64,000 nucleotides of DNA from a virus. The stretch covers positions 11,478 through 75,477 of IMG/VR virus record IMGVR_UViG_3300037092_000015; one strand, written 5' to 3'. The notes beneath the pieces were generated by a model, which saw nothing but the letters and a program-made list of their open reading frames with translations, was not told where the DNA came from and did not search any database. Position numbers and translations under genes: made by a program. Position 1 is the first letter of the stretch; each line of letters opens with the position of its first letter. Of this stretch, positions 3,221-59,104 are shown one piece after another.

Positions 3221-5277
3221 GACAGCACCTCGATTTCCACGTAACCCGGAACCGTTGGCGCGTCGGCGCCTAGCGGTCGCACATCGGTGAGAACCGCCTG
3301 GTCTAATTTATCGGTGCGGATTAATTCCAGAAGCAATGCTACGAACGCGACCTTGTTATGGTCATCCAGGCGTCCTATCTCGTCCACCATAGCCAGCCGG
3401 AACGGCGCGTCCGCTGCCAGTGCAACAGACAGGGCACAGTAAGTCAACGCCTGCTCTGTCCCTGAGAACATCTTGTGAGTGATCAGCTTCCCGGCTGTCG
3501 CCATACCGATTTCACCGTCTTGCCATACCAACGGGCTTCGTAGAATCCCGCCGCACAACTCGTTAGCCCGCACCACCAACGGACCCACCGCCGCGTCCAG
3601 CAGCTTGGATTGCAGCGCCGCCACCAATTTTGCGGTCTCTTTCCAGACCTCGCACTCCACCCGCGCCCGCGCTAGTTCCGCCGCCGCCCGGGCGCTGGCC
3701 GCCTTCTCCGCTCGCAGCGCCAAGAGTTGCTTGTAGGCTGTGTCCGCCGTGGCCACTTCGATGCGCTTTGTATCCGCTGCCAGTTTCGCTGCCGTGTAAT
3801 CTGACCGCGCCTTGTCTAGCGCAATCGTGAGAACCGGAACCTTGCCCGCCGCTTCTGCCGCCGCCGCGTTGTGCGCTACCTTCTCACGCAACTCCGCCAC
3901 TTGGTTAGCCATCACCTTGAGCGCGTGCTGTGCGCCAATGTAGAGCGTGTTCTTGTGCGTCCAGTCGGCAACCGCGTTCTGGTAGCTGGTATGGGCTTCG
4001 GCTGTAGCTTTGTCCCATGATGCTTGTGCCTGATAAACCTCGCTCAAGGCCACCGACGCCGCCGTCGCCGTAGGGTTGAAGTCCAGTCGCGCCTGTGTGG
4101 CCGTCTTAACCGACTTGCTCGCTGCCTTGATTAAGGTTTCCAACCCCTTCACCACCTTGGATTGCAAGTCCACTATGCTCTGGCCGCACTTGCTGCACTT
4201 GACCGCACCCGCCGCGTCTTTCAGTTCCTTTTGAAGCCGCGTTATATCGGCTTCCGCTTGTCGCACGTCGCCGTCGAGCTTGTTCGCTACCTTGGCAGCG
4301 TTCGCAACAGCATCCCGCGCCGCCGTGTCATCCGGGCGATTGCCTGTCGCCGTCGGCCTCGCTGGCTCCGGACCAGCGGGTAGCATTTTGGAACTAGCTC
4401 CGATCTTGATCTCGTTCTCCAGTTTTGCGATGCGGTTCTGCGTAGCTTCCAAGTCAACCGCCGTAGCCGCTAACTCCTTGGCGTCGTTTAGCGCGTTCAG
4501 TGCGCCTTGCCCAACCTCCGTTATACGCGACTGCTCCTGCACCGCCGTCTCTAGCAGCGCACGCGCACGCGCCAACCGTTGCTCCGCGTCAACCGGCGGT
4601 GGCGGCCCGGTCAGAGCGATCTGCGCCTGCCCTTGCCCAGTCTTCTGCATCCGCTGCACACACGCTGCGCTTGCCTTCTTTTTCTCCCCCACCATTTCCA
4701 CCATGCTCTCAACCCACGCTTGCGGAGTCCGATCAGAGTCGGTGGTTAGCGTCGTGCCGTTCAATAGCTTCACCACTTCCTCCAACCCCGCCTCGCTCTC
4801 CGGCGTATTGTCTTCCAGCTTCACGTTCTTGACGTTAGCTACAAGCGCCCGCACCATCGCCTCGATGGTCATGTCCTCTGGAAGCTTGCACCGTCCGAAC
4901 AGGAACCGCGTCCGCGCCGGGCCGCTCAGCCCCAGGAACTCCCCTTGCACATCCAGCGCCACTGGCGGCATCTTCAAGTCTCCTTCTTGCGTAACCCTCA
5001 CGCTGCCGCCAACCTCCTGCCATGTCCGGCTCAGAACCGTGCCGTCGTCCATCGTCCCTGCGACGTGGAGAGGGTTGCCGCTCGCCACCGCGTCGAATAC
5101 GTCTCGGGGCTTGGAACTCATGCCGGGCAAGCTGCCGCCTAGCAGTAGCGATATGGTGTTCTCTCTGGCCGTCTTGCCGGCAAAGTTGCGTCCGTATATC
5201 AACGTGACGGCGCCAAGCTTGTGCGTGAAGGTTTGCCCCTTTACGTTGCGGCCTGTCAAAGTGTCTATCTTTCTCAT
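3217..5277 (-). CDS. Rad50/SbcC (gp46-like) SMC-family ATPase
   Basis: Walker A GRNFAGKT, long coiled coil with CSKC zinc hook, signature FSGTE, Walker B MVDEIG. Confidence 0.88.
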   Translation of the reverse strand: MRKIDTLTGRNVKGQTFTHKLGAVTLIYGRNFAGKTARENTISLLLGGSLPGMSSKPRDVFDAVASGNPLHVAGTMDDGTVLSRTWQEVGGSVRVTQEGDLKMPPVALDVQGEFLGLSGPARTRFLFGRCKLPEDMTIEAMVRALVANVKNVKLEDNTPESEAGLEEVVKLLNGTTLTTDSDRTPQAWVESMVEMVGEKKKASAACVQRMQKTGQGQAQIALTGPPPPVDAEQRLARARALLETAVQEQSRITEVGQGALNALNDAKELAATAVDLEATQNRIAKLENEIKIGASSKMLPAGPEPARPTATGNRPDDTAARDAVANAAKVANKLDGDVRQAEADITRLQKELKDAAGAVKCSKCGQSIVDLQSKVVKGLETLIKAASKSVKTATQARLDFNPTATAASVALSEVYQAQASWDKATAEAHTSYQNAVADWTHKNTLYIGAQHALKVMANQVAELREKVAHNAAAAEAAGKVPVLTIALDKARSDYTAAKLAADTKRIEVATADTAYKQLLALRAEKAASARAAAELARARVECEVWKETAKLVAALQSKLLDAAVGPLVVRANELCGGILRSPLVWQDGEIGMATAGKLITHKMFSGTEQALTYCALSVALAADAPFRLAMVDEIGRLDDHNKVAFVALLLELIRTDKLDQAVLTDVRPLGADAPTVPGYVEIEVLS

Positions 5278-25416: not shown

Positions 25417-26162
25417 TTTGCCGGGGCGTCCGCCGCCGCGCTCCCCTCTTTGCCGACTGGAACTTCTTCATGACTGACCGTGGTGCTCCAATACACTTTC
25501 ATTTGCTTGTCAATCGCTAAGTATAGTTCTAGCAGTTCTTGCGCAGTGCAGTCTCCGAACTCTGCTTCCGCCGCGTCTTTGAACAGTTCTAACCCGTTTT
25601 GCTGCTTTAGCAGCGTCCGCACCTCGCTCGGCTTGCGCGTTACCAGCATCGCCAGTTGCCACAATGACGCGCCGCGTGGAATGTAAGTGTCGTCCACGCT
25701 CGGCTCAGCCCTCTTTCCTCCAAGCTTTCCATACGCTTCCGCTACGTCAATCCAGAACTGGTCCCAGTCCACTCCCTTTTTATCCGTCTTCTTAGCGGCC
25801 AGTGTCTGCGCGACTTGCCCCTTGGCCTTCTCCCACAGCAAGTCGTCCACTACCCACACCGGCTTGCCCGTGACGTTGGCGATTAGCTCCTTGGTTTGTA
25901 TGCGCTCGATAGGGTGCTTCAACAAGCCAAGCCACTCGTAATGACGGTCACGGAACGGCCCGACAGTCCACTTGCCAACCTGAATGTCTTGGCATGGGTT
26001 CACCGCCGCCGCCGTTGGACCCGGCAGCGGTGCCACCAGTGCTACCCGCGCCGCATTGTCCACCTCTCCGTCCTTGGCCTCCTGCGCCGCTACAGCTTGC
26101 TGTATCGCCGCCGTCATTCCTTTGTTTGCTTCCATAGACTGCGCGTTACTGGCCTGCGTCAA
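25401..26162 (-). CDS. Tail assembly chaperone G-like
   Basis: Lies between the putative tube and tape measure genes; slippery heptamer just before the stop. Confidence 0.65.
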   Translation of the reverse strand: MTQASNAQSMEANKGMTAAIQQAVAAQEAKDGEVDNAARVALVAPLPGPTAAAVNPCQDIQVGKWTVGPFRDRHYEWLGLLKHPIERIQTKELIANVTGKPVWVVDDLLWEKAKGQVAQTLAAKKTDKKGVDWDQFWIDVAEAYGKLGGKRAEPSVDDTYIPRGASLWQLAMLVTRKPSEVRTLLKQQNGLELFKDAAEAEFGDCTAQELLELYLAIDKQMKVYWSTTVSHEEVPVGKEGSAAADAPANPFST

Positions 26163-26604
26163 CGAGGATGATCTTTTCCAGCTTCAAGTCCCGCTCTCCA
26201 GGGACTCCGGACGACGCCTTGTAAGGTGACTCCACGACAAATGCCGTTACTTGCGCTCCGATGCCGTAGCCGAAGTGGTTTGCCATGTCAACGATGGTTA
26301 TCGTGTCGCCGACCTGCGGGAATGTTACGTCCGTTCTGTCCCTGACAGTCAAGTCCCACATGCCGCCGTGTTTGATTATTGACCGGCCAACCTTGGCCCC
26401 GCTGCCCTGCTTGTAGTGCTCCAAGCTCGTGTCCTGAGATTGGTTGCAGGTGAGAATCGACAGCAAAGTCAACCCGTCCACGTCGCCTGCTTGCGCGTCG
26501 AGCGTCGGGAGCAGCCCGTCCGTCCCCCACCGAGACTTTGACACGTCGCCTTGCAGAATGATCTGCGAGCTTGTCCCGCCTGTTACTGGCCATGCAAAAC
26601 CCAT
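26146..26604 (-). CDS. Putative tail tube protein
   Basis: 152 aa, beta-rich; synteny only. Confidence 0.5.
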   Translation of the reverse strand: MGFAWPVTGGTSSQIILQGDVSKSRWGTDGLLPTLDAQAGDVDGLTLLSILTCNQSQDTSLEHYKQGSGAKVGRSIIKHGGMWDLTVRDRTDVTFPQVGDTITIVDMANHFGYGIGAQVTAFVVESPYKASSGVPGERDLKLEKIILVDAGQ

Positions 26605-33932: not shown

Positions 33933-35711
33933 CTATTTCACCACGCACTGGATGCCTTGGCGCTCGTCGCCAACGCCGACGCCGAACATGGCCCGCAGGT
34001 GCATGTTCGCCATTTCGTAGTTGTGGTCGAGGAACTTAACGCTCAGGAACGGAATCCGGAGCTTCGGGCTCATCACGATCTCCAGCGCAGCCGTGCTCGG
34101 AATCTCCGGCATGATCTTGGTGTAGTCCAGCGGTGCGCGGCTGACGAACAGCAGCGCGTTGCGCGTGCCGGCAAAGCCAAGGACCGACGCGGTGGTCGGA
34201 TCCCCGGTGGACACCGAGTAGTTCGGTGGGGTGGCGCCGTCGGAAACTTCCGTCAGCGTGTCCGTCATCAACTGCGACTCGCTATACTTCACGTTCCCTA
34301 CGCGGTGGTAGTTGCCAGTCTTGATGAGGTCGTTGCCAGTCTTGCCGGCAATCGCGTCCTTGATTGCCCGCAAGGTTTGGTTCAACACAAACCCAGAGTC
34401 GGCAGGCAACAGCGAATAAATGTCTGGATGCAACCAAGCAAACCGCTCCACATCGGGGGAGTCTTCGGGCTCCTGGCCGCCGGGGAACTTGGCCATGTTC
34501 ATCACGCGAGGCAGTTCCGCCAGGAACGTGCTAACAGTAGCGCCCTTGACGTTGAACACTGCGCGGTTCAACACCGGGTCAGTGTATGCCGGGGCGAACT
34601 TCTTGCCAGCCGTGACCGTGCCGTCGTTCTCGATGCGCTGCGTCCCATTGACGATTGCGTTGACCAGTTGGAACACAATGCCTTCGCACAGCCCATAGAT
34701 TTGCACCGTCTTCTGCTCGTTGAAGAGCTGCCGGTAGGTGCTCGCCAAGAGCGTGTTCATGATGCTAATCGGGATGCCGATGTAGTTGTTCATTTGCACG
34801 TTGGCATTCCGAGCGTTGCCGACGTTGCCGCCCCATGCGCTGTTAGTCAGGTTCGTCCGCTTCTGGTAGCCCGGAACGATGATGTAGCGGGTGACCGCCT
34901 CCTGCATGAACAACACCGGCTGGTTTTCAACGTCCGTGCTGATGTCGTTCAACTGCGGCAGCATGTTCTCGATGTGCCCCAGGTTCCACGTCATAATCAG
35001 GTCGCTGTTCAAGGCGCCCTGCCCGGTCGTCGGACTCGTGCTGCCCGGATCGTTGTAGTCCGCAGCGCGAATAAGGTCCAAGATCGGGGCGTCGCCGCCG
35101 AGCGCCTTGACCTTGTTTTCGATCATGCCGATAAACGTCGCCCGCGCATTGGCCGCCTCAGTAGCCGCCATAATCGCCCGGGTGGCCGTGCCGCCGGTTC
35201 CGCAGGTGCGGATCAAACCGCCTTGGCGCCACGTCTTCAGGAAAGGCTCGCTGGCCTTGACGTAGCCTTGCACCATCTCGCCAAGCGACTGCTCGCAGCC
35301 GTGCAGCGTGCCGGTCTTCAGTTCGCCGGCCTGTATCTTCCGGTCGGACAGATCGTCTTGCTTCACCTTCACCGGCAGGTTGGCGATGTAGGCAACGCCG
35401 CGTCCCGGCTTGAGCATCTCAATGTCGAGCGCCTCAGCCCGGATGGTGTCTTTCACCTCTTCCTTGAGCGCGATGGCCCCGCGAACACGCGCCTGCACAA
35501 TGGCAGTGTCGATGCTCACTTCGGCCCGCACCCGCTCCCGAGCTTCGGCAGCCTTGATCTTCTCCGCGTTGTCGTAGTCGGTGGCGCGAACAGCCCAGCC
35601 GTCGTCCATCAGCAGGTCGACCTGCTCCTTCTCAACTTTCAGTCGTGTGCCCACTTCCCAATTCTTCTCGGGGCAGGCTTTCACCACGACGATTTCGTGT
35701 TTGTCGTTCAT
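33933..35711 (-). CDS. Major capsid protein with N-terminal scaffold-like region
   Basis: 592 aa after the protease; HK97-like C-terminal pattern (AWLHPDIYSLL, VKYSESQLM, LRAMFGVGVGD). Confidence 0.75.
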   Translation of the reverse strand: MNDKHEIVVVKACPEKNWEVGTRLKVEKEQVDLLMDDGWAVRATDYDNAEKIKAAEARERVRAEVSIDTAIVQARVRGAIALKEEVKDTIRAEALDIEMLKPGRGVAYIANLPVKVKQDDLSDRKIQAGELKTGTLHGCEQSLGEMVQGYVKASEPFLKTWRQGGLIRTCGTGGTATRAIMAATEAANARATFIGMIENKVKALGGDAPILDLIRAADYNDPGSTSPTTGQGALNSDLIMTWNLGHIENMLPQLNDISTDVENQPVLFMQEAVTRYIIVPGYQKRTNLTNSAWGGNVGNARNANVQMNNYIGIPISIMNTLLASTYRQLFNEQKTVQIYGLCEGIVFQLVNAIVNGTQRIENDGTVTAGKKFAPAYTDPVLNRAVFNVKGATVSTFLAELPRVMNMAKFPGGQEPEDSPDVERFAWLHPDIYSLLPADSGFVLNQTLRAIKDAIAGKTGNDLIKTGNYHRVGNVKYSESQLMTDTLTEVSDGATPPNYSVSTGDPTTASVLGFAGTRNALLFVSRAPLDYTKIMPEIPSTAALEIVMSPKLRIPFLSVKFLDHNYEMANMHLRAMFGVGVGDERQGIQCVVK

Positions 35712-42035: not shown

Positions 42036-42290
42036 TTAAGTTTGCTTGCTGCCGCTGTTCGCTGCCGCCTCTAACGCCCTGTCGTATTCTGCCTCGTCAA
42101 ACTCTATCCTGCCGTTGAACCTGTGCACCGGCCCGATACCTACCGCCGCCCGCCACTCATCATGCAACCGCTCACACCGTAGCCGCCTCTGCGTCTTGCT
42201 GTTCGGGTTCGGCAAGCTGCACAGCAACTGCCGAGCTGCCGCGTGTTTGAGGTTCGCTACCTTGCACTCGCGTCTCTGCTTCGGAGTCAT
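42036..42290 (-). CDS. Hypothetical protein
   Basis: Coupled to the TerL stop. Confidence 0.5.
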   Translation of the reverse strand: MTPKQRRECKVANLKHAAARQLLCSLPNPNSKTQRRLRCERLHDEWRAAVGIGPVHRFNGRIEFDEAEYDRALEAAANSGSKQT

Positions 42291-43678
42291 AGCCTTCCTA
42301 TCATCCTTTCCTCACCTGGACGTCCTGCCGACTGGCTCTTCCATGCGCCACTCCCAAACACCGAGGCGGAACTGAATCCGCCAGACACCCCGAGCGCCAC
42401 TGCCAGATAGCGCAAGGCATCAAGCGCATGATCGTTCTCCTTCACCGGCTGGTCCTTCGGTTTGTCCGGCGCCCAGACGTAGCTCTCGAACTCGTTTATC
42501 AAATTAACGCACGATGGGTCTACCGTCAGCCGTGGCCGCCCGTCACCTGCCACCTTGAGCAAGTTCTGTATCTTGTTGATGCCATCAATCACCCTTCCCT
42601 TTTCCCCGCGTGCGAACACCTGCATGGAGTTCATGTCCGCTATCAGCCCAGCCGCCGCCTCGTCCACCGCTGCGAACTCGTGCCGTCGCCCTTCGGCCTT
42701 GAACCACTTGCACGCCTGCCCGACTACAACGTTCTGTAGCTGGCCGCGCTCATACCACTCTTGAAACACATGCCAACGACCATCGCTGTCCAAACCTACG
42801 TCCAGAATCACAGCCGGGTTCGTGTAGCCCTCGTCGCACGCTAGCAGCCACCGCTTCATGTCGCCAGGCTGCCGAACCAGCACATGCACCGCTGCGCTGA
42901 ACCCGTCATACACCGCACCCTCTGCCGACGCCCACGCGCCCTCGAACAGCCGCTTTCGACGCATTCCAGTCAGGTCGTTCAGCACCGCCATGCGCCGGCT
43001 ACCGTCCTCTGTCAATATATAGGTGCATCCATTGCGTATAACGGAACCTTGCGGGTTGCCTTGAGGAAACTCTTTAGCCGCTTGTTCCGGTGTCAGGTTT
43101 CGGTAGATAGTAGGGTTGTCGGTGTGCACTGACGACAGCAACCGAATCTTTCCATCCTTAGCCCGCTTTCGTATCCAGTGCTGACTCCCGCCAGGGTTCG
43201 CGTCACCGTAGAGTTGCGGCCACTTCACAACCGCCCCGCGACCGCTGCACCGTGTTGCTAAATACTCCCAGTCGTTAAGGGAAAGCTCCTCTGTCTGGCA
43301 TGTGTAAATAAAATCACGCTCGCTGCTAAGGATGCGGTCTGGATTGTCCATTCCACCGCACCATATCGTTGACCCGTTCGGGTAGATGAAACGCGACGGG
43401 GTTTCCCCTCCGAACGCCTCTACTCCGCCGTTGCCATGTGTCACCTTGGCAAACGTCTTTAGCACAGACCCCGCTAGACTAGCCGCAGTCTTGCGCACAA
43501 TAGCCCCCTGGCAGCCCGGGTAGGTCATGCACAATATGTGCGCCTTCATACAGCACGGCCACGTCTTGCCAGTGTCCGAAGGACCACAAATAATAACCTC
43601 GTGCTCCCTCGACGCCACCAAGTCGTAAGCGGCCCCGCGTAGTGGCTCCTTCTTTGACTTGACGATGCGCCGCGCCAT
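42287..43678 (-). CDS. terL: Terminase large subunit (PBSX-like)
   Basis: ICGPSDTGKT, ANPGGSQHWI, ACDEGYTNP, ENDHALDALRY; TAATG overlap with TerS. Confidence 0.92.
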   Translation of the reverse strand: MARRIVKSKKEPLRGAAYDLVASREHEVIICGPSDTGKTWPCCMKAHILCMTYPGCQGAIVRKTAASLAGSVLKTFAKVTHGNGGVEAFGGETPSRFIYPNGSTIWCGGMDNPDRILSSERDFIYTCQTEELSLNDWEYLATRCSGRGAVVKWPQLYGDANPGGSQHWIRKRAKDGKIRLLSSVHTDNPTIYRNLTPEQAAKEFPQGNPQGSVIRNGCTYILTEDGSRRMAVLNDLTGMRRKRLFEGAWASAEGAVYDGFSAAVHVLVRQPGDMKRWLLACDEGYTNPAVILDVGLDSDGRWHVFQEWYERGQLQNVVVGQACKWFKAEGRRHEFAAVDEAAAGLIADMNSMQVFARGEKGRVIDGINKIQNLLKVAGDGRPRLTVDPSCVNLINEFESYVWAPDKPKDQPVKENDHALDALRYLAVALGVSGGFSSASVFGSGAWKSQSAGRPGEERMIGRL

Positions 43679-44262
43679 TACGGAAGGTCCTTCTCCGCCA
43701 CGCCGCAATCCCACACTGCCGTCGCCTCAGTGCCATCCGGTGCCTTGACCGACAATGTGCCACCCTCCCGTGGCGGCTCCCGGTATGTCTTTGGGTCATG
43801 CGACTTGAGTAAGAATATGGTCAGGGTGTCGCTAAACTCCCTCACCTTGTCCACGCATACGGGCTTGCCAGCGGCATTCTTCATCCAGATGCGCTTCTCT
43901 ACCCCGTCTCTTGCCCGTTTAATCGCCGCATTTGTTAGCCTGCCGACTGCTAACTTTAAGGCTTGGTCCCATTGCTTAGCGAACAGTTGGCTTTTCTTTC
44001 GAGCATTGTAGGCGGTCGGTGGCGTGATTCCAGCCTCCTCGCACGACGCTGCTACGTTAGGCACGTTAGCTAATGCCGTAAGGAACTTACTTCGCCAATT
44101 ACCTTTGCCGGCAGCCGTACTTCGCCGCCTTCCTTTTTTAATTCCTTTAGGCGTAACTTTCGTAAATGCTTCCTTGTCACCCTGCCCCGGCCTTATCGTA
44201 GTGCCTACGGGCTTGCCTTTCGCATTTAACTTAACCCCATGTTGGCTGCCGTTGCCGTTCAT
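43678..44262 (-). CDS. terS: Terminase small subunit
   Basis: FLTALANVPNVAASCEEAGI HTH; FSDTLTIFLLKSHDPKTYRE. Confidence 0.8.
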   Translation of the reverse strand: MNGNGSQHGVKLNAKGKPVGTTIRPGQGDKEAFTKVTPKGIKKGRRRSTAAGKGNWRSKFLTALANVPNVAASCEEAGITPPTAYNARKKSQLFAKQWDQALKLAVGRLTNAAIKRARDGVEKRIWMKNAAGKPVCVDKVREFSDTLTIFLLKSHDPKTYREPPREGGTLSVKAPDGTEATAVWDCGVAEKDLP

Positions 44263-44576: not shown

Positions 44577-45233
44577 TCATAGCAGCACGCCTTGGTTTGC
44601 CTCGCGTTCCAGACGGGAGCAGGCGGTTGCGTAGTGTGTCGGATTCTTCTCGATGCCCACGAAGTTGCGGCGAGTTTTCAGACAGGCCAGCCCTGTGCTT
44701 CCGCTGCCCATCCACGGGTCTAGCACGGTGTCGCCTTCCTTCGTTACGTCGAGGATGATTTGTTGCATCAGTCGCACCGGCTTCTGTGACGGATGCCCTG
44801 TCCATTCGTCGCCAGTGTATGACGCCGCGACGGTCGAGTTGATCAGGTATTGCCGATAGACTTTGTAGTTCGCCTGACCGTTGCGCTCGTAGATGCGTTC
44901 GTATTGGCTTCCGCAGCCTGTCTTTTTATCCCAGATGTGGATTGCCGTGTAGTCGAGCGGGAAGTCCGCCTTCGCAGACCAGAAGATGAGTTGCCGACAT
45001 TCTATCAGGCGCAGAGATTCGAGCAGCCCGTCCTCGTATCCGTAGGCTTCCGCGTGGTAGTCAGGATATGGCGGGTCACAGATTATCACGTCGCACTTCA
45101 TCGGGAGCATCGTCTGGCAGTCGCCGAGTATGAGAGTCGCCACGACATGACCCCTAACAAATCGCTTCAGCGAACCGCCGTTGGGCGTCGCAGGCGAGTT
45201 CGGGAGCGTTAGCTCGGCGGTCGCTGAGCTCAT
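44577..45233 (-). CDS. DNA methyltransferase (N6A/N4C, beta class), cassette-borne
   Basis: DPPY, HPSQKP, DPWMGSGSTG. Confidence 0.9.
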   Translation of the reverse strand: MSSATAELTLPNSPATPNGGSLKRFVRGHVVATLILGDCQTMLPMKCDVIICDPPYPDYHAEAYGYEDGLLESLRLIECRQLIFWSAKADFPLDYTAIHIWDKKTGCGSQYERIYERNGQANYKVYRQYLINSTVAASYTGDEWTGHPSQKPVRLMQQIILDVTKEGDTVLDPWMGSGSTGLACLKTRRNFVGIEKNPTHYATACSRLEREANQGVLL

Positions 45234-45242
45234 ACGTTAGAC
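45152..45242 (+). repeat. attC1
   Basis: CCCTAAC aaatc GCTTCAGC...GCTGAGC tcatac GTTAGAC. Confidence 0.88.
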
Positions 45243-45390
45243 AGCCGGGCCGCACGTTGGGTTTGCGTTTGGTTTTCGACCAGCGGGCGGCGACCGCAGC
45301 GCGGGCTTGCTCGCTGGTGCGGGCTTTTGCCGCGCCAGTCCCAGCAGACCCTCCGAGTTTTCCGAGCGCGACCGCGGCGGGATTTTTCAT
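45154..45390 (-). CDS. Small basic protein (KNPAAVALGKLGG type)
   Basis: MKNPAAVALGKLGGSAGTGAAKARTSEQARAAVAARW; tail reads into attC1. Confidence 0.65.
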   Translation of the reverse strand: MKNPAAVALGKLGGSAGTGAAKARTSEQARAAVAARWSKTKRKPNVRPGCLTYELSDRRANAPELACDAQRRFAEAIC

Positions 45391-45656
45391 TGAACTAAAC
45401 ATTTTGCCGCGCCGAGCGCGTCTGCCGTGATTCCAATCCGAAGCATATCTTCCGCCGCCCTGCGGGATTTTGGCCCGTAGTAATTTTCCCCCAGGAAGCT
45501 GCCAGCCTTGCAGTCAATCCATTCGATTTGGTCGGGCGCGATTTGCACCCCATCGCGGTCGCAGATTTGTTCGCCTCGAATTTCGACACCCTCACTCACA
45601 ACCAACATTTTCGTTACCGGATCAATCCGGTTTTTTATTCTGGCACAGGTATTCAT
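45387..45656 (-). CDS. Hypothetical cassette protein
   Basis: 89 aa, ATGA-coupled. Confidence 0.6.
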   Translation of the reverse strand: MNTCARIKNRIDPVTKMLVVSEGVEIRGEQICDRDGVQIAPDQIEWIDCKAGSFLGENYYGPKSRRAAEDMLRIGITADALGAAKCLVQ

Positions 45657-45695
45657 ATTTTTAAGCAGGGATTAGTTTCCTCTCCCTTTGATTTT

Positions 45696-46019
45696 TTAAT
45701 AGCGTTCGCCGGGAAGGTCTGGGGTTGCCCGGAGTTTGGGGCGCGCAAGGAAGGCTTTGTTGCTCGCTTCGCGAGCCGCTTTGCCAGCCTCACGTTGAGC
45801 CGCCGCCGCCGATTCTTCTTGCTGATAGGCGGCCAATTGTGCGGTATGCACACGAGCGCCAACCACTTTACCTTCGGGTGAATATTTGCTTCCGACCAGA
45901 TGAAACGGAATGGCTTCACCTTTTGCGGTTTTGAAGCCGCCTTCCGGTTGAAGGATTGCATCTGTCCACTGTCCGCCGCCGGTTTGTCCGGCTGGCACTC
46001 TTGGTTCGTCTTCGTTCAT
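45696..46019 (-). CDS. Cassette protein with N-terminal PRVPAGxxGGGQW motif
   Basis: MNEDEPRVPAGQTGGGQWT. Confidence 0.65.
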   Translation of the reverse strand: MNEDEPRVPAGQTGGGQWTDAILQPEGGFKTAKGEAIPFHLVGSKYSPEGKVVGARVHTAQLAAYQQEESAAAAQREAGKAAREASNKAFLARPKLRATPDLPGERY

Positions 46020-46067
46020 TTTTTCTTTCGTTGGCTTGGCTTACTGGGCCTCGCCCTTTATGCCTGC

Positions 46068-46096
46068 AATATACGCAAGCGATTGCGTATATGCAA
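46068..46096 (-). promoter_or_regulatory. Cassette-internal promoter overlapped by a 10-bp inverted repeat
   Basis: TTGCAT-17-TATATT; ATATACGCAA-gcga-TTGCGTATAT. Confidence 0.75.
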
Positions 46097-46158
46097 ACAA
46101 AATCTTCATTTATTTACACACTCACAAAACCATTGATTCTATTGACTCAAACCGGCCT

Positions 46159-46258
46159 GCCCAACAAATCGCTGCACGCAATGACCGCCGCATTGGGCGT
46201 CATTGGCGAGTTCGGGCATCGTGGGCGCGGCGTTCATGCGTGAGCTTGGTCGTTGGGC
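46159..46258 (+). repeat. attC2
   Basis: GCCCAAC aaatc GCTGCACG...CGTGAGC ttggtc GTTGGGC. Confidence 0.9.
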
Positions 46259-46283
46259 GCTTAGTCACTCCGCGCCCGATGCG

Positions 46284-46598
46284 TTACGGGTTTTTCGTGT
46301 AGTCCTTTTCCCCCGCCTTTTGGATATCCTCGAAAAATCCAGGCCGATGCACTCGCGCCACCGGCGAGTTGAACCACGGATTGTTGCGTTGCGCCCAGTC
46401 CACGGCCTTCTCCCCAGCGCGCGGCAGTGCGGCCTGCGCCTCTTTGATGGCTTGCGGAATATGCGTTTGCTCGATGTTTGTCCGCTGAGGCAGGCTTTGG
46501 AGTCTGCCGATTTCGGAGCTGATGACCGCTCCCGTCTCGGGCATGAATTGCCCGCCTTCCGGCGATCCCGCCGGGACTCTTGGTTGATCTGGATTCAT
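46284..46598 (-). CDS. Cassette protein with N-terminal QPRVPAGSPEGGQF motif
   Basis: MNPDQPRVPAGSPEGGQFM. Confidence 0.7.
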   Translation of the reverse strand: MNPDQPRVPAGSPEGGQFMPETGAVISSEIGRLQSLPQRTNIEQTHIPQAIKEAQAALPRAGEKAVDWAQRNNPWFNSPVARVHRPGFFEDIQKAGEKDYTKNP

Positions 46599-46621
46599 TG
46601 TGTGTTTTTGTTGTTCGACGC

Positions 46622-46716
46622 GCCCAACCAATCACTGGAGCGAATGCAGGCGGGCGCTGCCTGTTCGCAAATTCGGATGTCAGTGGCCGCCTGCATCGCT
46701 CAGTTCTGCGTTCGGC
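46622..46716 (+). repeat. attC3
   Basis: GCCCAAC...GTTCGGC; near-identical to attC8. Confidence 0.9.
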
Positions 46717-46988
46717 ATCTGAAATTCCAATTGCCTCTGGACCGGCTTGTCGAACGTTTTCCACGCTGGGTCAGTACAGAAGGGATGCAGGTCCACGAAG
46801 GCATTGTAGTAGATCCCCCAGGAGTGTGTGATGCAGATTCTGAGATTCAGTCGGAAGTTGTATTCTTCCGTAGTCAGGTATCGGTCATCATCGGCCTCCG
46901 AATGCCGAACCAGACGCTCCACACGAACCGCCGCCAGCCTCTCGGACTCCGGGAGGCTGTTTCGTTTTCGGGCGGCAGTGGTGTTCAT
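46680..46988 (-). CDS. Cassette protein (starts in attC4, ends in attC3)
   Basis: ...VERLVRH...MPNAELSDAGGH. Confidence 0.6.
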   Translation of the reverse strand: MNTTAARKRNSLPESERLAAVRVERLVRHSEADDDRYLTTEEYNFRLNLRICITHSWGIYYNAFVDLHPFCTDPAWKTFDKPVQRQLEFQMPNAELSDAGGH

Positions 46989-47017
46989 GGCGGCGGTCGG
47001 TGAGCTACTTGTTCGGC
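46904..47017 (+). repeat. attC4
   Basis: GCCGAAC cagac GCTCCAC...GTGAGC tactt GTTCGGC. Confidence 0.88.
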
Positions 47018-47322
47018 GCGCGCAGGCATTCCTCCCACGTCATGCCGCAGACTTTCTTGTAATGCTTTGCCGAGGCCACCAGTTCCCGCGCGGTCTTTCC
47101 CGACGCGACGACCTGCTCTCGCGTGTAGTCGAAGTTCACCGGCTTTCCGTCTTGGTCCTGCCATTGGCCTTCGCTGCGCTCGTTCCAGCCCAGGACCAGG
47201 AAGTGGGTTCCGTAGGGAGAAGTGATGCGCGCCGCGTCGCACTTGAACATGCGGACGAATCGCCGAACCAAGCGCTCCAGACAACCGCCGACGGGCGTCT
47301 CTTTTGAAGTCGTAGCGTTCAT
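47005..47322 (-). CDS. Cassette protein (starts in attC5, ends in attC4)
   Basis: ...LERLVRR...RAPNK. Confidence 0.65.
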   Translation of the reverse strand: MNATTSKETPVGGCLERLVRRFVRMFKCDAARITSPYGTHFLVLGWNERSEGQWQDQDGKPVNFDYTREQVVASGKTARELVASAKHYKKVCGMTWEECLRAPNK

Positions 47323-47352
47323 GTCGGCGGTGTCTGAGCTTGGTCGTTCGGA
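47262..47352 (+). repeat. attC5
   Basis: GCCGAAC caagc GCTCCAGA...TCTGAGC ttggtc GTTCGGA. Confidence 0.88.
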
Positions 47353-47699
47353 GATGCATTAATGCGCTTGATAATACAGCTTGTGCAGAGCGTTCTCCCT
47401 CGTGTGGTCGTTGGCAGACTCCCCATCCGGCCTGTGTTCTGCGGAAATGCTGCGATGATATTCCTGGCATTGCTCCGCGCTTTGGATAGCTGCTCACGCT
47501 TGTTCCCCCCCAGCCTAGGGGCGACCAGTGCAGATAGCGCGTCCAGCAGGATTCGCTCTCGCGCTCGGACAGCCGTTCCCAGTCCTGAGACTGATGTTGG
47601 TCCGCGGACGATACCATTGCATAGGTCGGTGATCTGGCTCTCAATCGCAGAACCAAGCGGGTCGAGCGAACTGCCCGATTGCGTCTCAGGTTTATTCAT
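47319..47699 (-). CDS. Cassette protein with C-terminal CxxC
   Basis: Starts in attC6, ends SPNDQAQTPPT in attC5. Confidence 0.6.
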   Translation of the reverse strand: MNKPETQSGSSLDPLGSAIESQITDLCNGIVRGPTSVSGLGTAVRARERILLDALSALVAPRLGGNKREQLSKARSNARNIIAAFPQNTGRMGSLPTTTRGRTLCTSCIIKRINASPNDQAQTPPT

Positions 47700-47738
47700 A
47701 GCGTTTTGGCGGGCAGTCGCTCACCCGCGGCGTTCGGT
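47647..47738 (+). repeat. attC6
   Basis: GCAGAAC...GAGCGAACTGCCCG/CGGGCAGTCGCTC...GTTCGGT. Confidence 0.82.
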
Positions 47739-47995
47739 GGAAGCGGTTGACCGCATTCCTTGCAACAGCTTGGGGCCTTCTGCTTCTCTGCCAGTTCTGC
47801 GTCGTGGACCAGCATCGCCGCTGCCAACCTTCGGCTGGCCATCGTGAAACGGCGCCACAAATATTCTTCGTGCGTTTGCAGGCACGGCCTTGGTCTGTTC
47901 GTATGCGCCAGCGCCCATGCATCCCTCCACCAAACGCACCGAACCAATCGCGGCAGCGAACCGCCGACTGGCGTTGTTGCAATAGGGGTGTTCAT
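47696..47995 (-). CDS. Cassette protein with CxxC
   Basis: Starts in attC7, ends PPNAAGERLPAKTL in attC6. Confidence 0.6.
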   Translation of the reverse strand: MNTPIATTPVGGSLPRLVRCVWWRDAWALAHTNRPRPCLQTHEEYLWRRFTMASRRLAAAMLVHDAELAEKQKAPSCCKECGQPLPPNAAGERLPAKTL

Positions 47996-48031
47996 TGGTG
48001 GTTATCGCCGCCGCTCAGCTTGTCGTTGGGG
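47938..48031 (+). repeat. attC7 (more degenerate)
   Basis: ACCGAAC caatc GCGGCAGC...GTTGGGG. Confidence 0.7.
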
Positions 48032-48058
48032 CGCTTAGTCACTCCACGCCCAGTTACG

Positions 48059-48334
48059 CTATTGCGCGGTGTTTTCACACGCCGGTAGTGCCGATGTGTC
48101 GGCGACTTTCTTGATGTCCCCAAGCTTGGCTCGTACGTCGTCAATGTGCAGGCATTCCGCCAGGTTGCATCCAGCTTGGTCTGCTACCGGCACGGCTAGG
48201 TTGCCGTTGCAGGCGTCGTTTCCAGGAGTCGCATCGTGGAGTATTCCGACGATGGACTTCACGTAGTATCCGGGCGGCACGATGCGGAGCACGCGGTCCC
48301 CGTTCTTTGCTTCTCTTCCGTTTGCGTAGTGCAT
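48059..48334 (-). CDS. Cassette protein (MHYANGREAKNGD type)
   Basis: 91 aa, self-contained within its cassette. Confidence 0.7.
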   Translation of the reverse strand: MHYANGREAKNGDRVLRIVPPGYYVKSIVGILHDATPGNDACNGNLAVPVADQAGCNLAECLHIDDVRAKLGDIKKVADTSALPACENTAQ

Positions 48335-48360
48335 ACTTATGTTCTGTGTTTACCGTCGCG

Positions 48361-48455
48361 CCCTAACCAATCACTAGAGCGAATGCAGGCGGGCGCTGCC
48401 TGTTCGCAAATGGGTTTGTCAGTGGCCGCCTGCATCGCTCAGTTCTGTGTTCGGT
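48361..48455 (+). repeat. attC8
   Basis: CCCTAAC...GTTCGGT; near-identical to attC3. Confidence 0.9.
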
Positions 48456-48646
48456 GATGTGTTTTCCACGGTCACATACCCAAGGAATGCCATCGTTTTC
48501 CCGCAACAGCGAGGCATGGGAGCATCTGCCCCGAGATAGGCAGGCACATATTCCTCTCGCCCACACTGTCGGCAGTAGTGCTTGAAGCATCTCACCGAAC
48601 GAGCCGCGTCAGCCAACGGCGGGGTTACGCTTTTAGTGTTCTTCAT
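48419..48646 (-). CDS. Zn-ribbon cassette protein
   Basis: YCRQCG...PRCCGKTM; ends SPNTELSDAGGH. Confidence 0.6.
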   Translation of the reverse strand: MKNTKSVTPPLADAARSVRCFKHYCRQCGREEYVPAYLGADAPMPRCCGKTMAFLGYVTVENTSPNTELSDAGGH

Positions 48647-48685
48647 ACGTCCTTTGGCCCGCCGTGGCTGCGCTCTGTGTTATGC
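48594..48685 (+). repeat. attC9
   Basis: ACCGAAC...CAGCCAACGGCGGG/CCCGCCGTGGCTG...GTTATGC. Confidence 0.85.
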
Positions 48686-48769
48686 CCTACCATCGGAAGG
48701 TTCCCGTATCGTCGATTTTGCGGGTGAGCCACCAGACCACGATCATCAGTATTATCAGTTCCATATGGT

Positions 48770-48964
48770 TTATTTATTCCCTCTGAGCAGGCGGTAGGCG
48801 CGGATCGCTACAGCGTCCCACACGGCTACTGATTCGCTTGGCAGGTCTCTGAATTTACAGAGGGGGCGCCCCCAGATTGATTTTGGCTGGCTCAGCATTT
48901 CTTTCCGGCTAGCGTTGTAGAGTTTGATAGCCAGTGTTCGGGCTTCATCTAGTTTTTGTTTCAT
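48770..48964 (-). CDS. Cassette protein
   Basis: 64 aa, ATGA-coupled. Confidence 0.5.
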   Translation of the reverse strand: MKQKLDEARTLAIKLYNASRKEMLSQPKSIWGRPLCKFRDLPSESVAVWDAVAIRAYRLLRGNK

Positions 48965-49194
48965 GGCAGTAGGTCGTTGAGGCGCTTCTGGAGCGCGGTT
49001 GCCAGCACGCTAACCTTTGTCTGTTGCTCTGAGGCTGGCAGGTTTTCGATTTCGTAGCACAGGTTCAGCGCGGCGCTTCTGGCGTCCCCGATTCCCCGGT
49101 GCAGTTTGATTTCTTTCGCAGTCGTAGCCGTGGCCACCTGCGAGAGTTCCAGATACAGGCTGTTGATAGTGTCGAGTTCCATAGGCATAACCAA
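48961..49194 (-). CDS. Cassette protein
   Basis: 77 aa, starts at attC10. Confidence 0.55.
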   Translation of the reverse strand: MVMPMELDTINSLYLELSQVATATTAKEIKLHRGIGDARSAALNLCYEIENLPASEQQTKVSVLATALQKRLNDLLP

Positions 49195-49243
49195 TCACGC
49201 CACCGAACCGGCTCCGCGCCGGTCGGTGAGTTCCTTGTTATGC
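49185..49243 (+). repeat. attC10 (59 bp)
   Basis: GCATAAC...CACCGAACCGG/CCGGTCGGTG...GTTATGC. Confidence 0.88.
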
Positions 49244-49473
49244 CTGCACCCCAGGACGTGAGTGATGGTGCCGCCATTCGGGCCGGGGTCGTTGAGGCAC
49301 TCGGGGCACTGCACGGCCATTTTGTCCGCGCAGGTTTTTCCCGGCGCATATGTCGCGCAGTTCGAGCATTCACCGAGCAGATACCATCCGCACCAGCACT
49401 TTGCTGCCGCTGGCAGGTTGCTCAGCATGTCCATGTATTCTTGTTGGTCAGAGTTAAACATCGCAGCGCTCAC
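49195..49473 (-). CDS. Cys-rich cassette protein
   Basis: CWCGW...CSNC...CPEC; ends RHNKELTDRRGAGSVA. Confidence 0.6.
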   Translation of the reverse strand: MSAAMFNSDQQEYMDMLSNLPAAAKCWCGWYLLGECSNCATYAPGKTCADKMAVQCPECLNDPGPNGGTITHVLGCRHNKELTDRRGAGSVA

Positions 49474-50153
49474 AATTCATCCGGTTCGCAGGCGTTGTCG
49501 AAGTGCCGCTTGTCCTTCTCGACGCCGATAAATTTACGACCAGTCCGCAGGCAGGCGATTCCCGTGCTGCCGCTGCCCATGTATGGGTCTAGCACCGTTG
49601 CCCCGACCGGCACGCCAACTTGTTCCAGACACCACGCCATCAGCGCGACCGGCTTTTGGTTGCTGTGGATTCGCGGCTCGTCCTTTTCCTTCGCTTGCGC
49701 ACCGTTCCAATAGCGCGTTTTCAGCCGCAGAACGCCGTCCTGGTTTGTCCACGCCGTCTCGCCGTCGGCCTGGTCGTTGCTTGGGATGCCTTCGCGCTTG
49801 TCCCATATCAGCCACCGTGAGGAGTTCGGCAGGCGGTTCGCGTAGTGATTCGCGCCCCACAGCACCACAATTGGATAGCCGAGCCACGGGCGCGGGTCGA
49901 ACGGCTTGTCATCGCCCATGATTGCCTCGCCATCAGTGCCGAGTTTCACGCCGCCTTTACGCGCTCCGTGGCAGTAGGCGATTCCATACGGCGGGTCGCT
50001 GATTAGCGCGTCCGCGTCTATCCACGGAAGCTCCAGACAGTCGGCATTGATTAGTCGGCAGTCTCCGATTGTGACCCCTAACAAGTCGCTGCACGCAATG
50101 CCCACCGCGTTCACGGTTTGCTTGCAATCGGGTGCTGTTGGCGCGGTGGTCAT
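49470..50153 (-). CDS. DNA methyltransferase (N6A/N4C, beta class), cassette-borne, slightly truncated at C-terminus
   Basis: SDPPYG, HSNQKP, DPYMGSGSTG. Confidence 0.9.
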   Translation of the reverse strand: MTTAPTAPDCKQTVNAVGIACSDLLGVTIGDCRLINADCLELPWIDADALISDPPYGIAYCHGARKGGVKLGTDGEAIMGDDKPFDPRPWLGYPIVVLWGANHYANRLPNSSRWLIWDKREGIPSNDQADGETAWTNQDGVLRLKTRYWNGAQAKEKDEPRIHSNQKPVALMAWCLEQVGVPVGATVLDPYMGSGSTGIACLRTGRKFIGVEKDKRHFDNACEPDEL

Positions 50154-50173
50154 GCGTGAGCTAGTCGTTATCC
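50076..50173 (+). repeat. attC11
   Basis: CCCTAAC aagtc GCTGCACG...CGTGAGC tagtc GTTATCC. Confidence 0.88.
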
Positions 50174-50488
50174 TTCATGCTGTGTAGGTATTCCGTGGTC
50201 AGGGTGCTGGTATTCTGGATACTTGCGGCCCTTGACAGGCTCTCCGCGCAGCGGAGCTCCGCACTGCTCCATACATGCCACTCCAGTTGCTGTGATCTGT
50301 CGGATTTCATGCAGCGCCTTGTCGTCGCCGTGCCCTGTTACCCACGCATGGCGGGCATCGTTGCACAGTTTTTCGATGATGAGCAGCCACTCGGCTACAC
50401 AGTGTTGATGATCGGGCCACTTCTGTTCTTGGTAGGCGCGTTCGCCTTCGATTGCATGTCTTACGTCTGCATCTATATGTCGATTCAT
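50168..50488 (-). CDS. Cassette protein, helical MazG-like candidate
   Basis: AIEGERAYQEQKW...EWLLII...EIRQITATGVACME. Confidence 0.55.
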   Translation of the reverse strand: MNRHIDADVRHAIEGERAYQEQKWPDHQHCVAEWLLIIEKLCNDARHAWVTGHGDDKALHEIRQITATGVACMEQCGAPLRGEPVKGRKYPEYQHPDHGIPTQHEG

Positions 50489-50489
50489 A

Positions 50490-50580
50490 GGATAACGAGT
50501 CGGTTCAGCGACTGCCGGGTTCGCGTTTGGGTTTCAGTTCGGGAGTCAGCGGCCCGGCATCGCTGACCTCTTTGTTCCGG
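50490..50580 (+). repeat. attC12
   Basis: GGATAAC gagtc GGTTCAGC...GCTGACC tcttt GTTCCGG. Confidence 0.85.
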
Positions 50581-50891
50581 GCTGCCGATCCGGAACCTTT
50601 GCATGTGGGGCATTTCCGCCCTGGCTCAGCTTGTTTGTTCGTCGCGCCGGAATGAGCGCCGCCAGCCTCTTCCTTGGCTGCCGCAAGTTCACCCTGCCTC
50701 AGCCGAACGCTAGCCGTGATTGACTGCCGCATGGTCCAGCCGTCCTCGTCGCGGCCTCGCGCCTTCCAAAATCGCCGCGCACCGGCCCTCACCGAAGCAG
50801 CCATCTGACGCAGCGGCTCACCGGTCGGATGCTCAAGCACCGTCTCCCAGTCTCCCTGCTGAATCGTTGCTAGATTTAGACCGTCGTTCAT
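50505..50891 (-). CDS. Hypothetical protein reading into attC12
   Basis: CPTCKGSG, then ARNKEVSDAGP across the core site. Confidence 0.55.
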   Translation of the reverse strand: MNDGLNLATIQQGDWETVLEHPTGEPLRQMAASVRAGARRFWKARGRDEDGWTMRQSITASVRLRQGELAAAKEEAGGAHSGATNKQAEPGRKCPTCKGSGSAARNKEVSDAGPLTPELKPKREPGSR

Positions 50892-57702: not shown

Positions 57703-58118
57703 GCAACCCTCCGGTTCCATTCCCGCTTGCAGCCTACCCGTATCCGGTCCGTTCCACGCGCCGTCTTGCCAGCCGCGTAGAGCCTCTCGCGCATCCTTTG
57801 GTTGTAACGCCGTTTGGCAGCACGCTTCAACGCCGCCGCCCGCAACGCCTTCCTCTCCGGTGACCACCCTCTCATGTCCACGCGCTGCCGCTTGCGCTTC
57901 GTCCCCCTGACCGTCATCCCCAATTCCACGCGCCTCTGCCGCATCGCCGCCACGCTCGCCAGCGCCTTGTCGCGCACCATGCGGTCTATCTCCGCCTCGC
58001 TCAGCGGCGCCACCGCAGTCTTGGCTAGCACAACGCCGCGCCCCACAAACATCGACACCAGCGCCGCAGGGTCCGGCAGCCGCGTCCCGTCACGGAAATG
58101 TAGGACGTGGGCGGTCAC
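57699..58118 (-). CDS. Arg-rich hypothetical protein
   Basis: Coupled ORF. Confidence 0.5.
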   Translation of the reverse strand: MTAHVLHFRDGTRLPDPAALVSMFVGRGVVLAKTAVAPLSEAEIDRMVRDKALASVAAMRQRRVELGMTVRGTKRKRQRVDMRGWSPERKALRAAALKRAAKRRYNQRMRERLYAAGKTARGTDRIRVGCKREWNRRVA

Positions 58119-59104
58119 AGCAACATCTTGTCTTGCTCGCGCTTTTCACCTAGCGCAGTTGCCACGTTCTTTACTGACTGCCGATAATAAGTTGGCTTGA
58201 GTTCTGCACCGATTCCTTTGCGTCCAAGAAGGACCGCCATATACACCTCGCTGCCGACGCCTAGGCACGGGGTCCATACTACTTCTCCTGGATTGCTCCA
58301 CAGCGTTATGCCGCGCTCGATCACGTCCAGTTGCAGTGGGTGGCAGTGCTTTTCGTCGTCAGCGTCCCGGGCATCCTCGTAAGGGAGCACTCGGTCGATC
58401 CGCACATCATCCCAAAACGCCGACGCATACTGCCGCCAAATCCAGTGCGAGTATCGGTTCTCAGTTTGCTTCCCGGTGTGGCCTTTCCACTCTTGCAACT
58501 CGTGAGGAATGACGCGCTCGCCAGCGTAGGTTTGAAGTCCGCTCGGGTGAGCGATAGGCACTTGGTTTTCTCCTTTCTTGCGGAACATTAGCAGATAGTC
58601 CGCGCTAGCCACGTCGCACAAGGACGAGTCCTCCACTACCTGCTTGTGCGCCAGACCTTTCGCCATCGTCCGGTTGCGCACGCCTAGCGGCTCTTTCCAG
58701 ACGTGATAGCGGGCACAGTAGTTGAAACCTATTTCCGTATGGAGCCGGATAATGTCGCCCGGAAAGTCAATCAATCCGGTGCCTACATTGGCGCCTACAC
58801 CCATCTTTGCCGTCGCGCCGTTCCCGATGCCTGGAACGTCCATGCAATGCACGGCGGTTATGCGTCCAGGCTTTGTTAGCCGAAAGATTTCTTGCACCAC
58901 GAATCGGTAGTGCTCAAAGAACTCTTGGTAGTTCTTGCAATTCGACAGGTCACGGTCGCTGCTAGAATAATTGTAAAGCCCGCAAAATGGTGGCGAGTAT
59001 ATAGACATATCTACTTTATTAGACGGCAGCGCTTGTGAAACTTCCATGCAGTCTCCATTATAGAGAGCGTATTCTGGGGTTATCGTTTGGTGTATTATAG
59101 CCAT
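58115..59104 (-). CDS. DNA methyltransferase (SPPF type)
   Basis: YNGDCME, YSPPF, HCHPLQLDVI, WSNPGEVVWTPCLGVGSE. Confidence 0.9.
   Translation of the reverse strand: MAIIHQTITPEYALYNGDCMEVSQALPSNKVDMSIYSPPFCGLYNYSSSDRDLSNCKNYQEFFEHYRFVVQEIFRLTKPGRITAVHCMDVPGIGNGATAKMGVGANVGTGLIDFPGDIIRLHTEIGFNYCARYHVWKEPLGVRNRTMAKGLAHKQVVEDSSLCDVASADYLLMFRKKGENQVPIAHPSGLQTYAGERVIPHELQEWKGHTGKQTENRYSHWIWRQYASAFWDDVRIDRVLPYEDARDADDEKHCHPLQLDVIERGITLWSNPGEVVWTPCLGVGSEVYMAVLLGRKGIGAELKPTYYRQSVKNVATALGEKREQDKMLL

Follow-up and report, generated by a model that had tools for sequence, protein, structure and literature searches.

The window analyzed here, a 64,000-nucleotide stretch comprising bases 11478–75477 of the linear 75.5-kb IMG/VR virus record IMGVR_UViG_3300037092_000015 (81 % complete), carries 12 integron-type attC recombination sites between positions 45152 and 50580. 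We consider it probable that this region is an integrase-less cassette array (cluster of attC sites lacking integron-integrases, CALIN) in which the genes are encoded by the bottom strand of the attC sites, are locked in a single reading frame at the recombination point, use the recombination hairpin as their 5' leader and are translated by coupled read-through from one cassette into the next. According to the textbook integron rule, a cassette consists of a promoterless gene followed by its attC and is read from the cassette promoter Pc.

Geometry of the attC sites and the coding strand

Fold and geometry analysis delineated 12 imperfect hairpins of 59–114 nt, all of which bear the inverted cores R'' (RYYYAAC) and R' (GTTRRRY), for example, CCTAAC with GTTAGAC or GCCCAAC with GTTGGGC. 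On the plus strand, the first arm consists of the AAC core, an unpaired spacer of 5–6 nt, 3 bp, a bulge, 6 bp and a second bulge, the bulged base of which is A (top strand) in 11 of the 12 sites; beyond it follow a G+C-rich stem, a variable loop, the complementary arm free of bulges, a spacer and GTT. In the recombining bottom strand of attC, R' is the box with AAC, the extrahelical bases (G16 and T23 in aadA7, i.e., 7 nt apart) being located on the opposite arm, whereas in the top strand they share the arm with AAC (Nivina 2016). Because both bulged bases share an arm with AAC on the plus strand, this strand is the attC top strand.

A strand-specific detector written for exactly this geometry (maximum score 14) found 10 of the 12 sites in the 75-kb record, all on the plus strand, and no attC on the minus strand or anywhere outside the array, with shuffled sequence yielding 0–3 matches. 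Among the controls, the aadA1 attC of plasmid R100 scored 14, its top strand being the aadA1 coding strand, and in the published CALIN of phage TJE1 the attC at 1020–1071 has the gene strand as its top strand; the method thus calls the known cases canonical. The geometry detector was used instead of an initial strict fold filter, which recovered just 4 sites; a covariance model was dropped, the MAFFT alignment of the 12 sites being poor in the loop and RNAalifold retaining 9 pairs. By the IntegronFinder definition (at least 2 attC on one strand, <4 kb apart), the region is a CALIN, with 12 sites on the plus strand within 5.4 kb and no integrase nearby. In the following list, AAC...GTT anchors are given in parentheses, incoming genes are those translated into a site, and tails are written up to the stop codon.

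45152–45242, plus strand: attC1 (45156–45238), fold and detector score 14; DNA methylase 1 begins here (ATG at 45233, first ~28 residues within the site)
46159–46258, plus strand: attC2 (46163–46254); internal ATG opens a 33-aa open reading frame (ORF) only; incoming gene ends 30 nt before the site
46622–46716, plus strand: attC3 (46626–46712), 92 % identical to attC8; tail NAELSDAGGH for gene 46680–46988
46904–47017, plus strand: attC4 (46908–47013); tail NK for gene 47005–47322; ATG at 46988 and leader of gene 46680–46988
47262–47352, plus strand: attC5 (47266–47348); tail NDQAQTPPT; ATGA overlap at 47319–47322; leader MNATTSKETPVGGCLERLVR of gene 47005–47322
47647–47738, plus strand: attC6 (47651–47734); tail NAAGERLPAKTL; ATGA overlap at 47696–47699
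47938–48031, plus strand: attC7 (47942–48027); incoming gene ends 32 nt before the site; ATG at 47995 opens gene 47696–47995
48361–48455, plus strand: attC8 (48365–48451); tail NTELSDAGGH for gene 48419–48646; next gene begins 24 nt after R''
48594–48685, plus strand: attC9 (48598–48681); ATG at 48646 opens gene 48419–48646, the sole internal ATG here with an AGGA Shine-Dalgarno (SD) motif
49185–49243, plus strand: attC10 (49189–49239), short (59 nt); tail NKELTDRRGAGSVA for gene 49195–49473; next gene begins in or at R''
50076–50173, plus strand: attC11 (50080–50169); incoming gene ends at the TAA in R' (GGATAAC); ATG at 50153 in frame with DNA methylase 2
50490–50580, plus strand: attC12 (50494–50576); tail NKEVSDAGPLTPELKPKREPGSR for gene 50505–50891; next gene begins 2 nt after R''

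The genes of the array point the other way. A codon model trained on the long genes of this phage classed the array's minus-strand ORFs as coding and its plus-strand ORFs as noncoding, and all Pfam matches fall on the minus strand, including both N6_N4_Mtase genes and the terminase. The methylases and the codon-model scores therefore place all cargo on the bottom strand of attC, contrary to the textbook cassette: no gene of the array has the canonical arrangement of a top-strand ORF followed by its attC. The first-pass annotation had likewise taken the plus strand for the attC top strand and the minus strand for that of the cargo, an assignment borne out by bulge geometry, detector, codon model and Pfam alike. 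Long plus-strand ORFs do exist (e.g., 46203–47003, 266 aa), so that one might suspect a miscalled strand, with the real cassette genes on the plus strand or the top strand misassigned. However, the plus-strand ORFs fail the codon model, the protein family matches are confined to the minus strand, and the annotated controls come out canonical with the same detector, and we give this explanation next to no credence. The array comprises the following cargo and one noncoding feature.

44577–45233, minus strand: N6_N4 DNA methylase 1 (Pfam), with an alternative GTG start at 45142 after AGGGG in R''
49470–50153, minus strand: N6_N4 DNA methylase 2 (Pfam)
45387–45656, 45696–46019, 46284–46631, 46680–46988, 47005–47322, 47319–47699 and 47696–47995, minus strand: small cargo genes without a Pfam family (1–7 of 14)
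48059–48334, 48419–48646, 48770–48964, 48961–49194, 49195–49473, 50168–50488 and 50505–50891, minus strand: small cargo genes without a Pfam family (8–14 of 14)
46036–46163, minus strand: AT-rich promoter-like region with a palindrome, in the cassette between attC1 and attC2

Codon phase at the recombination point

Along the mRNA, a cassette would run from C through L', a loop that often contains ATG, and L'' plus R'' (specifying ~20 N-terminal residues) to the gene body and RYYYAA. Given this fixed order, the hairpin is the 5' leader of its own gene, and the 3' end of the gene abuts the crossover, AA/C (slash, point of exchange). A gene would be terminated by a stop of its own ahead of R', by a TAA that forms part of R' (YTAA/C), or only after translation has continued into the next hairpin with AAC read as asparagine (Asn). 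Seven incoming genes (attC3, 4, 5, 6, 8, 10 and 12) read AAC as Asn, and the seven read-through tails quoted in the first-pass annotation are exact: PNK, PNAELSDAGGH, PNDQAQTPPT, PNAAGERLPAKTL and PNTELSDAGGH, each ending in a stop, together with HNKELTDRR... and RNKEVSDAGP.... At attC2, 7 and 9, the incoming gene stops ahead of the site; the TAA stop at attC11 belongs to the gene's own cassette because the crossover is AA/C; and the sole ORF entering attC1 (45154–45402, in another frame) is not coding-like.

As for starts, an internal ATG is in frame with, and open into, the downstream gene at seven sites (attC1, 4, 5, 6, 7, 9 and 11), the outgoing gene begins at or just after R'' at attC3, 8, 10 and 12, and at attC2 the 33-aa ORF from the internal ATG is followed by the AT-rich palindromic promoter-like region. 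The two ATGA overlaps of stop and start noted in the first-pass annotation, at 47319–47322 (attC5) and 47696–47699 (attC6), are exact, and at attC4, 10 and 12 the stop and the next start nearly overlap, being 6–16 nt apart. Thus the claim that many genes start in their own attC and stop in the neighbor's holds for the seven internal starts and the seven read-throughs, although not every site does both; the stronger claim that each attC supplies both a stop and a start applies to roughly half of the junctions, with stops falling early at attC2, 7 and 9 and starts lying at the R'' edge or outside the site at attC3, 8, 10 and 12.

The frame at AAC was compared across 12 contigs: the window; L041, a complete 55-kb genome with a terminase 45 % identical to that of the window; nine more viral contigs from a DNA pattern scan of IMG/VR; and one metagenome contig from a cargo-family search. 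The pattern scan gave 115 matches, mostly chance singles, and loci were kept only if they bore two or more sites in the same orientation; L134 (AT-rich, two score-13 sites, no ORFs) was treated as a pair of false positives, and single detector matches in L008, L009, L014, L015 and L018 were set aside as lying at the false-positive rate. Genome L041, which alone among 41 terminase-relative loci carries an array, has 9–10 attC at the same genome position, with the top strand likewise opposite its genes. In all other arrays (10 viral contigs and the metagenome contig), coding-like ORFs lie opposite the attC top strand, and of 10 ORFs taken from each strand, 5 on the bottom strand and none on the top strand matched Pfam families (Dam, N6_N4_Mtase, PAPS_reduct).

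With an objective rule (longest upstream open frame, at least 60 codons) applied to 53 nonredundant sites, the gene calls being heuristic, the Asn frame was used by 29 of 32 read-through genes in the 12 contigs (binomial p = 2e-11). Outside the window, the figure is 24 of 24 (p = 3.5e-12), so that the comparison of related arrays with chance that the first-pass annotation had proposed favors its reading in a larger, independent sample. The remaining sites comprise 8 with TAA in R' (7 of them outside the window), 3 that use another frame and 13 into which no long frame leads; the 3 in another frame all belong to the window, and the codon model overturns two of them. Randomly displaced anchors gave 0.29, 0.285 and 0.27 for the three frames.

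The three frames differ in what they meet beyond the crossover. Of 55 sites, 53 contain a stop in frame 0, in which AAC is Asn (tail length: median 11 aa, longest 31 aa); the corresponding figure is 41 for frame 1, which nevertheless has a stop in only 16 of the 30 sites that lack TAA in R', and 31 for frame 2. Because hairpin stops are nearly always present in frame 0, it is only in this phase that a gene can safely adjoin whatever cassette comes next. An early hairpin stop would accordingly be nearly universal in the Asn frame only, often as the TGA of an ATGA shared with the next start. Internal starts go with the frame of the gene that follows: at 27 of 46 sites, attC contains an ATG in the gene frame from which reading stays open through R'', compared to 9 of 92 for the other frames (p = 2e-9).

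The attC6 hairpin (47651–47734) and that at L041:4599–4681 have near-identical loops, ATG and initial codons (MN..ETQS) included, and stems that differ by compensating changes, in phages with terminases of only 45 % identity.

Traces of recombination and the integrase link

If attC sites double as coding sequence, the same cargo should be found with different attC-derived tails, a check suggested in the first-pass annotation. The family of gene 47005–47322 (alignment A2), with homologs in viral and metagenome data only (one distant relative in viral contigs, no relative in a collection of 185,579 species genomes), fits this expectation. Its members are conserved from RLVRRFVRMFKCD, whose LVR is specified by R'', to ...YLRS(LAS)PN, after which at least 10 different tails follow, each closed by a stop: NK, NDQAHA, NDQAQRPGANT, NDRVKRHF, NTKLTHE, NDPGERIAADKPKL, NVASGEVEFR, NAAGER and others. 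The leaders upstream of LVR vary too, and in some members, which lack attC, the N-terminus is short and the C-terminal part is a different, real one. In the cluster representative P0001, the cargo is 100 % identical to that of the window over the aligned part and carries the tail NDQAHA (attC2-type) instead of NK.

A natural junction points the same way. In a contig from another peat sample (run X14), position 47731 is joined to 50574 over the common letters GTTC, with 2842 nt skipped; the joint connects R' of attC6 with R' of attC12 and fits the IntI rule of exchange at G/TT of R'. In this variant, the 128-aa protein 50505–50891 would end RN-AAGERLPAKTL rather than RN-KEVSDAGPL.... Together, the variety of A2 tails and this R' joint argue that shuffling swaps protein tails, as had been anticipated. 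Several contigs from other samples also diverge at R' boxes (46715, 47348 and 49240). Finally, the cassettes attC2-to-attC3 and attC7-to-attC8 share both ends, namely the first ~30 nt (46243–46277 and 48017–48051, with a small GGGCGC...GCGCCC hairpin) and the 92 % identical attC (46623–46715 and 48362–48454), but their genes are unrelated, which gives the impression of a cargo exchange within an otherwise unchanged cassette.

Full-length TIGR02249-type integrases were found beside the array in 2 of 11 array-bearing viral records, the present one included:

L169:1168–2136 (IMGVR_UViG_3300049830_000248, contig 3183–4151): integrase-like gene (TIGR02249, full length), directly downstream of a reversed array
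L168:1189–2172 (IMGVR_UViG_3300045286_000131): integrase-like gene (TIGR02249, full length), directly downstream of a reversed array

In these two records, intI has the side and strand relative to attC that it has in In2 of R100; with standard intI/attC geometry and flipped cargo, the cassette genes run towards intI. In L169, the last cassette gene ends at the TAA in GCTTAAC ~25 nt before the intI ATG, which would seem to leave very little room for attI. Arrays with and without an integrase having been found, CALIN and complete forms therefore both exist.

The present record contains no intI plus attI beside the array: no tyrosine recombinase (PF00589) match was found in the 75 kb, nor is there an integrase in three complete genomes of related type (direct terminal repeats). 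Recombination here consequently depends on an enzyme unseen in the record. This absence, and that of the A2 cargo family from the species genomes, would be expected if the hairpins were a phage-specific intergenic repeat that resembles attC and serves another recombination system or functions as RNA elements. Such a repeat is nevertheless very improbable. The geometry is identical to that of the aadA1 and aadA7 sites down to the bulges 7 nt apart, and R100 aadA1 reaches the maximal detector score; IntI-type genes stand beside two such arrays in the canonical geometry; the natural junction lies exactly at GTT; and IntI1 recombines other phage attC (Qi 2023, PMC9892861).

Proposed expression model, known systems and genomic setting

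How such an array might be expressed can be outlined as follows. The array would be transcribed by read-through together with phage genes, independent of Pc. On finishing the upstream gene in frame 0, a ribosome would unwind the 5' arm of the hairpin in the RNA, halt at or near the loop AUG and pass to the next start; under repeated shuffling by a host or phage IntI, selection would retain the frame that is safe beside any neighbor. In RNA folds, the sites have energies of -30 to -55 kcal/mol with the AUG at the loop edge, and in attC4 and attC5 the 12 nt upstream of it are paired. We infer from these sequence features that translation is coupled and that expression is phage-driven and does not require Pc. 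No terminator-like site was found on the minus strand within the array. Contigs from RNA libraries (runs X14 and X16) that cover parts of the array were rejected as a sign of expression, being strandless and open to DNA carry-over, and stretches that these runs do not cover were likewise not taken as a sign of absence.

The main alternative accepts the real attC, the reversed genes, translation through attC and the frame lock, and differs on function alone: the overlap would merely be tolerated, the frame lock would reflect selection against read-through and fusions, and each gene would initiate independently. Of the 55 sites, 11 allow read-through of >40 residues in frame 1 and 17 in frame 2, so that purifying selection could suffice; SD-less initiation is normal in this phage. 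However, free initiation is disfavored at the internal ATGs, which lie at the edge of highly stable hairpins and have paired sequence upstream, and ATGA overlaps recur in unrelated arrays. We regard tolerated overlap as unlikely, and coupled read-through as the better description of the array.

Besides the missing integrase, several observations weigh against coupled read-through, the first two of them also favoring mere overlap. Stop-to-start gaps reach ~80 nt at attC3 and attC8; one cassette bears its own promoter-like region; and a stop or start is supplied by the site at only about half of the junctions. The lack of an SD motif was rejected as a sign of coupling and is uninformative, most genes of this phage having none. 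The ATG-to-AAC distance that makes ATGA (2 mod 3) is just moderately enriched, at ~15 of 28 (11 of 24 by the objective rule plus four hand-curated window sites), a lower bound given that the "longest downstream frame" rule picks spurious frames at several window sites. The chained ORFs 47319–47699 and 47696–47995 score weakly in the codon model, and some cargo homologs begin just before the R''-coded LVR, so that some leaders may be dispensable. Both integrase-like genes, at 256 and 238 bits, fall just below the NCBI cut-off of 265 bits for TIGR02249. Finally, the other arrays were found by a pattern derived from this window and may represent a single attC lineage.

Parts of this picture are already known. 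Virulent and temperate phages carry CALINs with N6_N4 methylase cargo, the sites of which are recombined by IntI1 (Qi 2023, PMC9892861). The present array resembles them in combining attC sites lacking an integrase in cis with N6_N4 DNA methylases. Unlike those CALINs, described as "typical" of bacterial cassettes, it has all genes on the bottom strand, starting in the sites and crossing the point of exchange in one frame, a layout absent from that paper. With class 1 In2 (R100: intI1, attI1, aadA1-attC) it has in common the R''/R' cores, the spacer, the L boxes, the co-oriented sites and two bulges separated by 7 nt. In In2, however, the top strand is the coding one, the gene comes before its attC, and expression from Pc, which adjoins attI, is directed away from intI; here the coding strand is the bottom one, attC comes first, and the crossover falls within the coding sequence or at its end.

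The proposed coupling would follow the logic of ORF-11/ORF-18 of attI1, in which a short frame extends over the recombination point and, closed by a stop in the core of the inserted cassette, couples the next gene (PMC8876359). That case, demonstrated experimentally, involves one site and a dedicated 11-aa ORF on the top strand; here, as read from sequence, the cargo proteins themselves cross attC on the bottom strand and stop in the hairpin. In the inverted integron-integrase group (Treponema and others), intI is inverted relative to attC and the cassettes are canonical (Cury 2016, PMC4889954). Integrase and cassette genes point the same way there as in the phage arrays; the phage arrays differ in that the cargo is what has been turned round, the geometry of intI and attC being standard. 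In the literature searched, neither coding on the bottom strand nor a rule for the frame at the crossover was found to be described.

A whole class of phage arrays breaks the textbook integron rule in a regular manner, with the gene behind the hairpin, directed towards the integrase and in one codon phase. The chances appear even that phages keep their own pool of integron cassettes on the recombining strand, in which a shared frame convention (AAC as Asn, or TAA in R') keeps the operon translatable and coupled, the sites acting as frame-standardized coding linkers and C-termini being diversified. If so, recombination sites would double as coding linkers, phages could swap anti-restriction genes (many cargo genes being DNA methylases) while leaving the operon intact, and integron finders that assume co-orientation of gene and attC would misdescribe such arrays. 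Translational coupling through a recombination hairpin would also be a testable model.

Several features of the cargo deserve mention. The arrays in L041, L085, L096, L105, L131 and the window are rich in DNA methyltransferases (Dam, N6_N4 and class I SAM) and encode a PAPS-reductase-like protein; they look like swappable anti-restriction toolkits. The proteins 45696–46019 and 46284–46598, encoded in different cassettes, have a common N-terminus (MN.D.PRVPAG...) and look like paralogs; the leaders of both genes are A-rich and lack an SD motif. A hydrophobic mini-ORF of 25 residues, MELIILMIVVWWLTRKIDDTGTFRW (48687–48764, minus strand), ends 2 nt before R' of attC9. The promoter-like region (46036–46163) contains the perfect-looking palindrome TGCAATATACGCAAGCGATTGCGTATATGCA; its cassette holds two sigma-70-like matches on the minus strand, the promoter-like part proper being given as 46068–46163, and another sample has a form that lacks 86 nt of the region (46019 joined to 46106).

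In this uncultured peat phage, nearly all genes are on the minus strand, and the array lies just upstream, in the sense of transcription, of the terminase genes at 42287–44262:

42287–43714, minus strand: terminase large subunit, in the flank directly downstream of the array
43678–44262, minus strand: likely terminase small subunit, in the flank directly downstream of the array

The best identity of the terminase to relatives from cultured phages is at most 34 %, and the public runs that carry the stretch are peat metagenomes. In most genes of this phage, the SD motif is absent and the leaders are A-rich (e.g., those with coordinates 33933–35711, 26146–26604 and 58115–59104), which hints at a host with SD-independent initiation; many of the genes open with ATGAAC.

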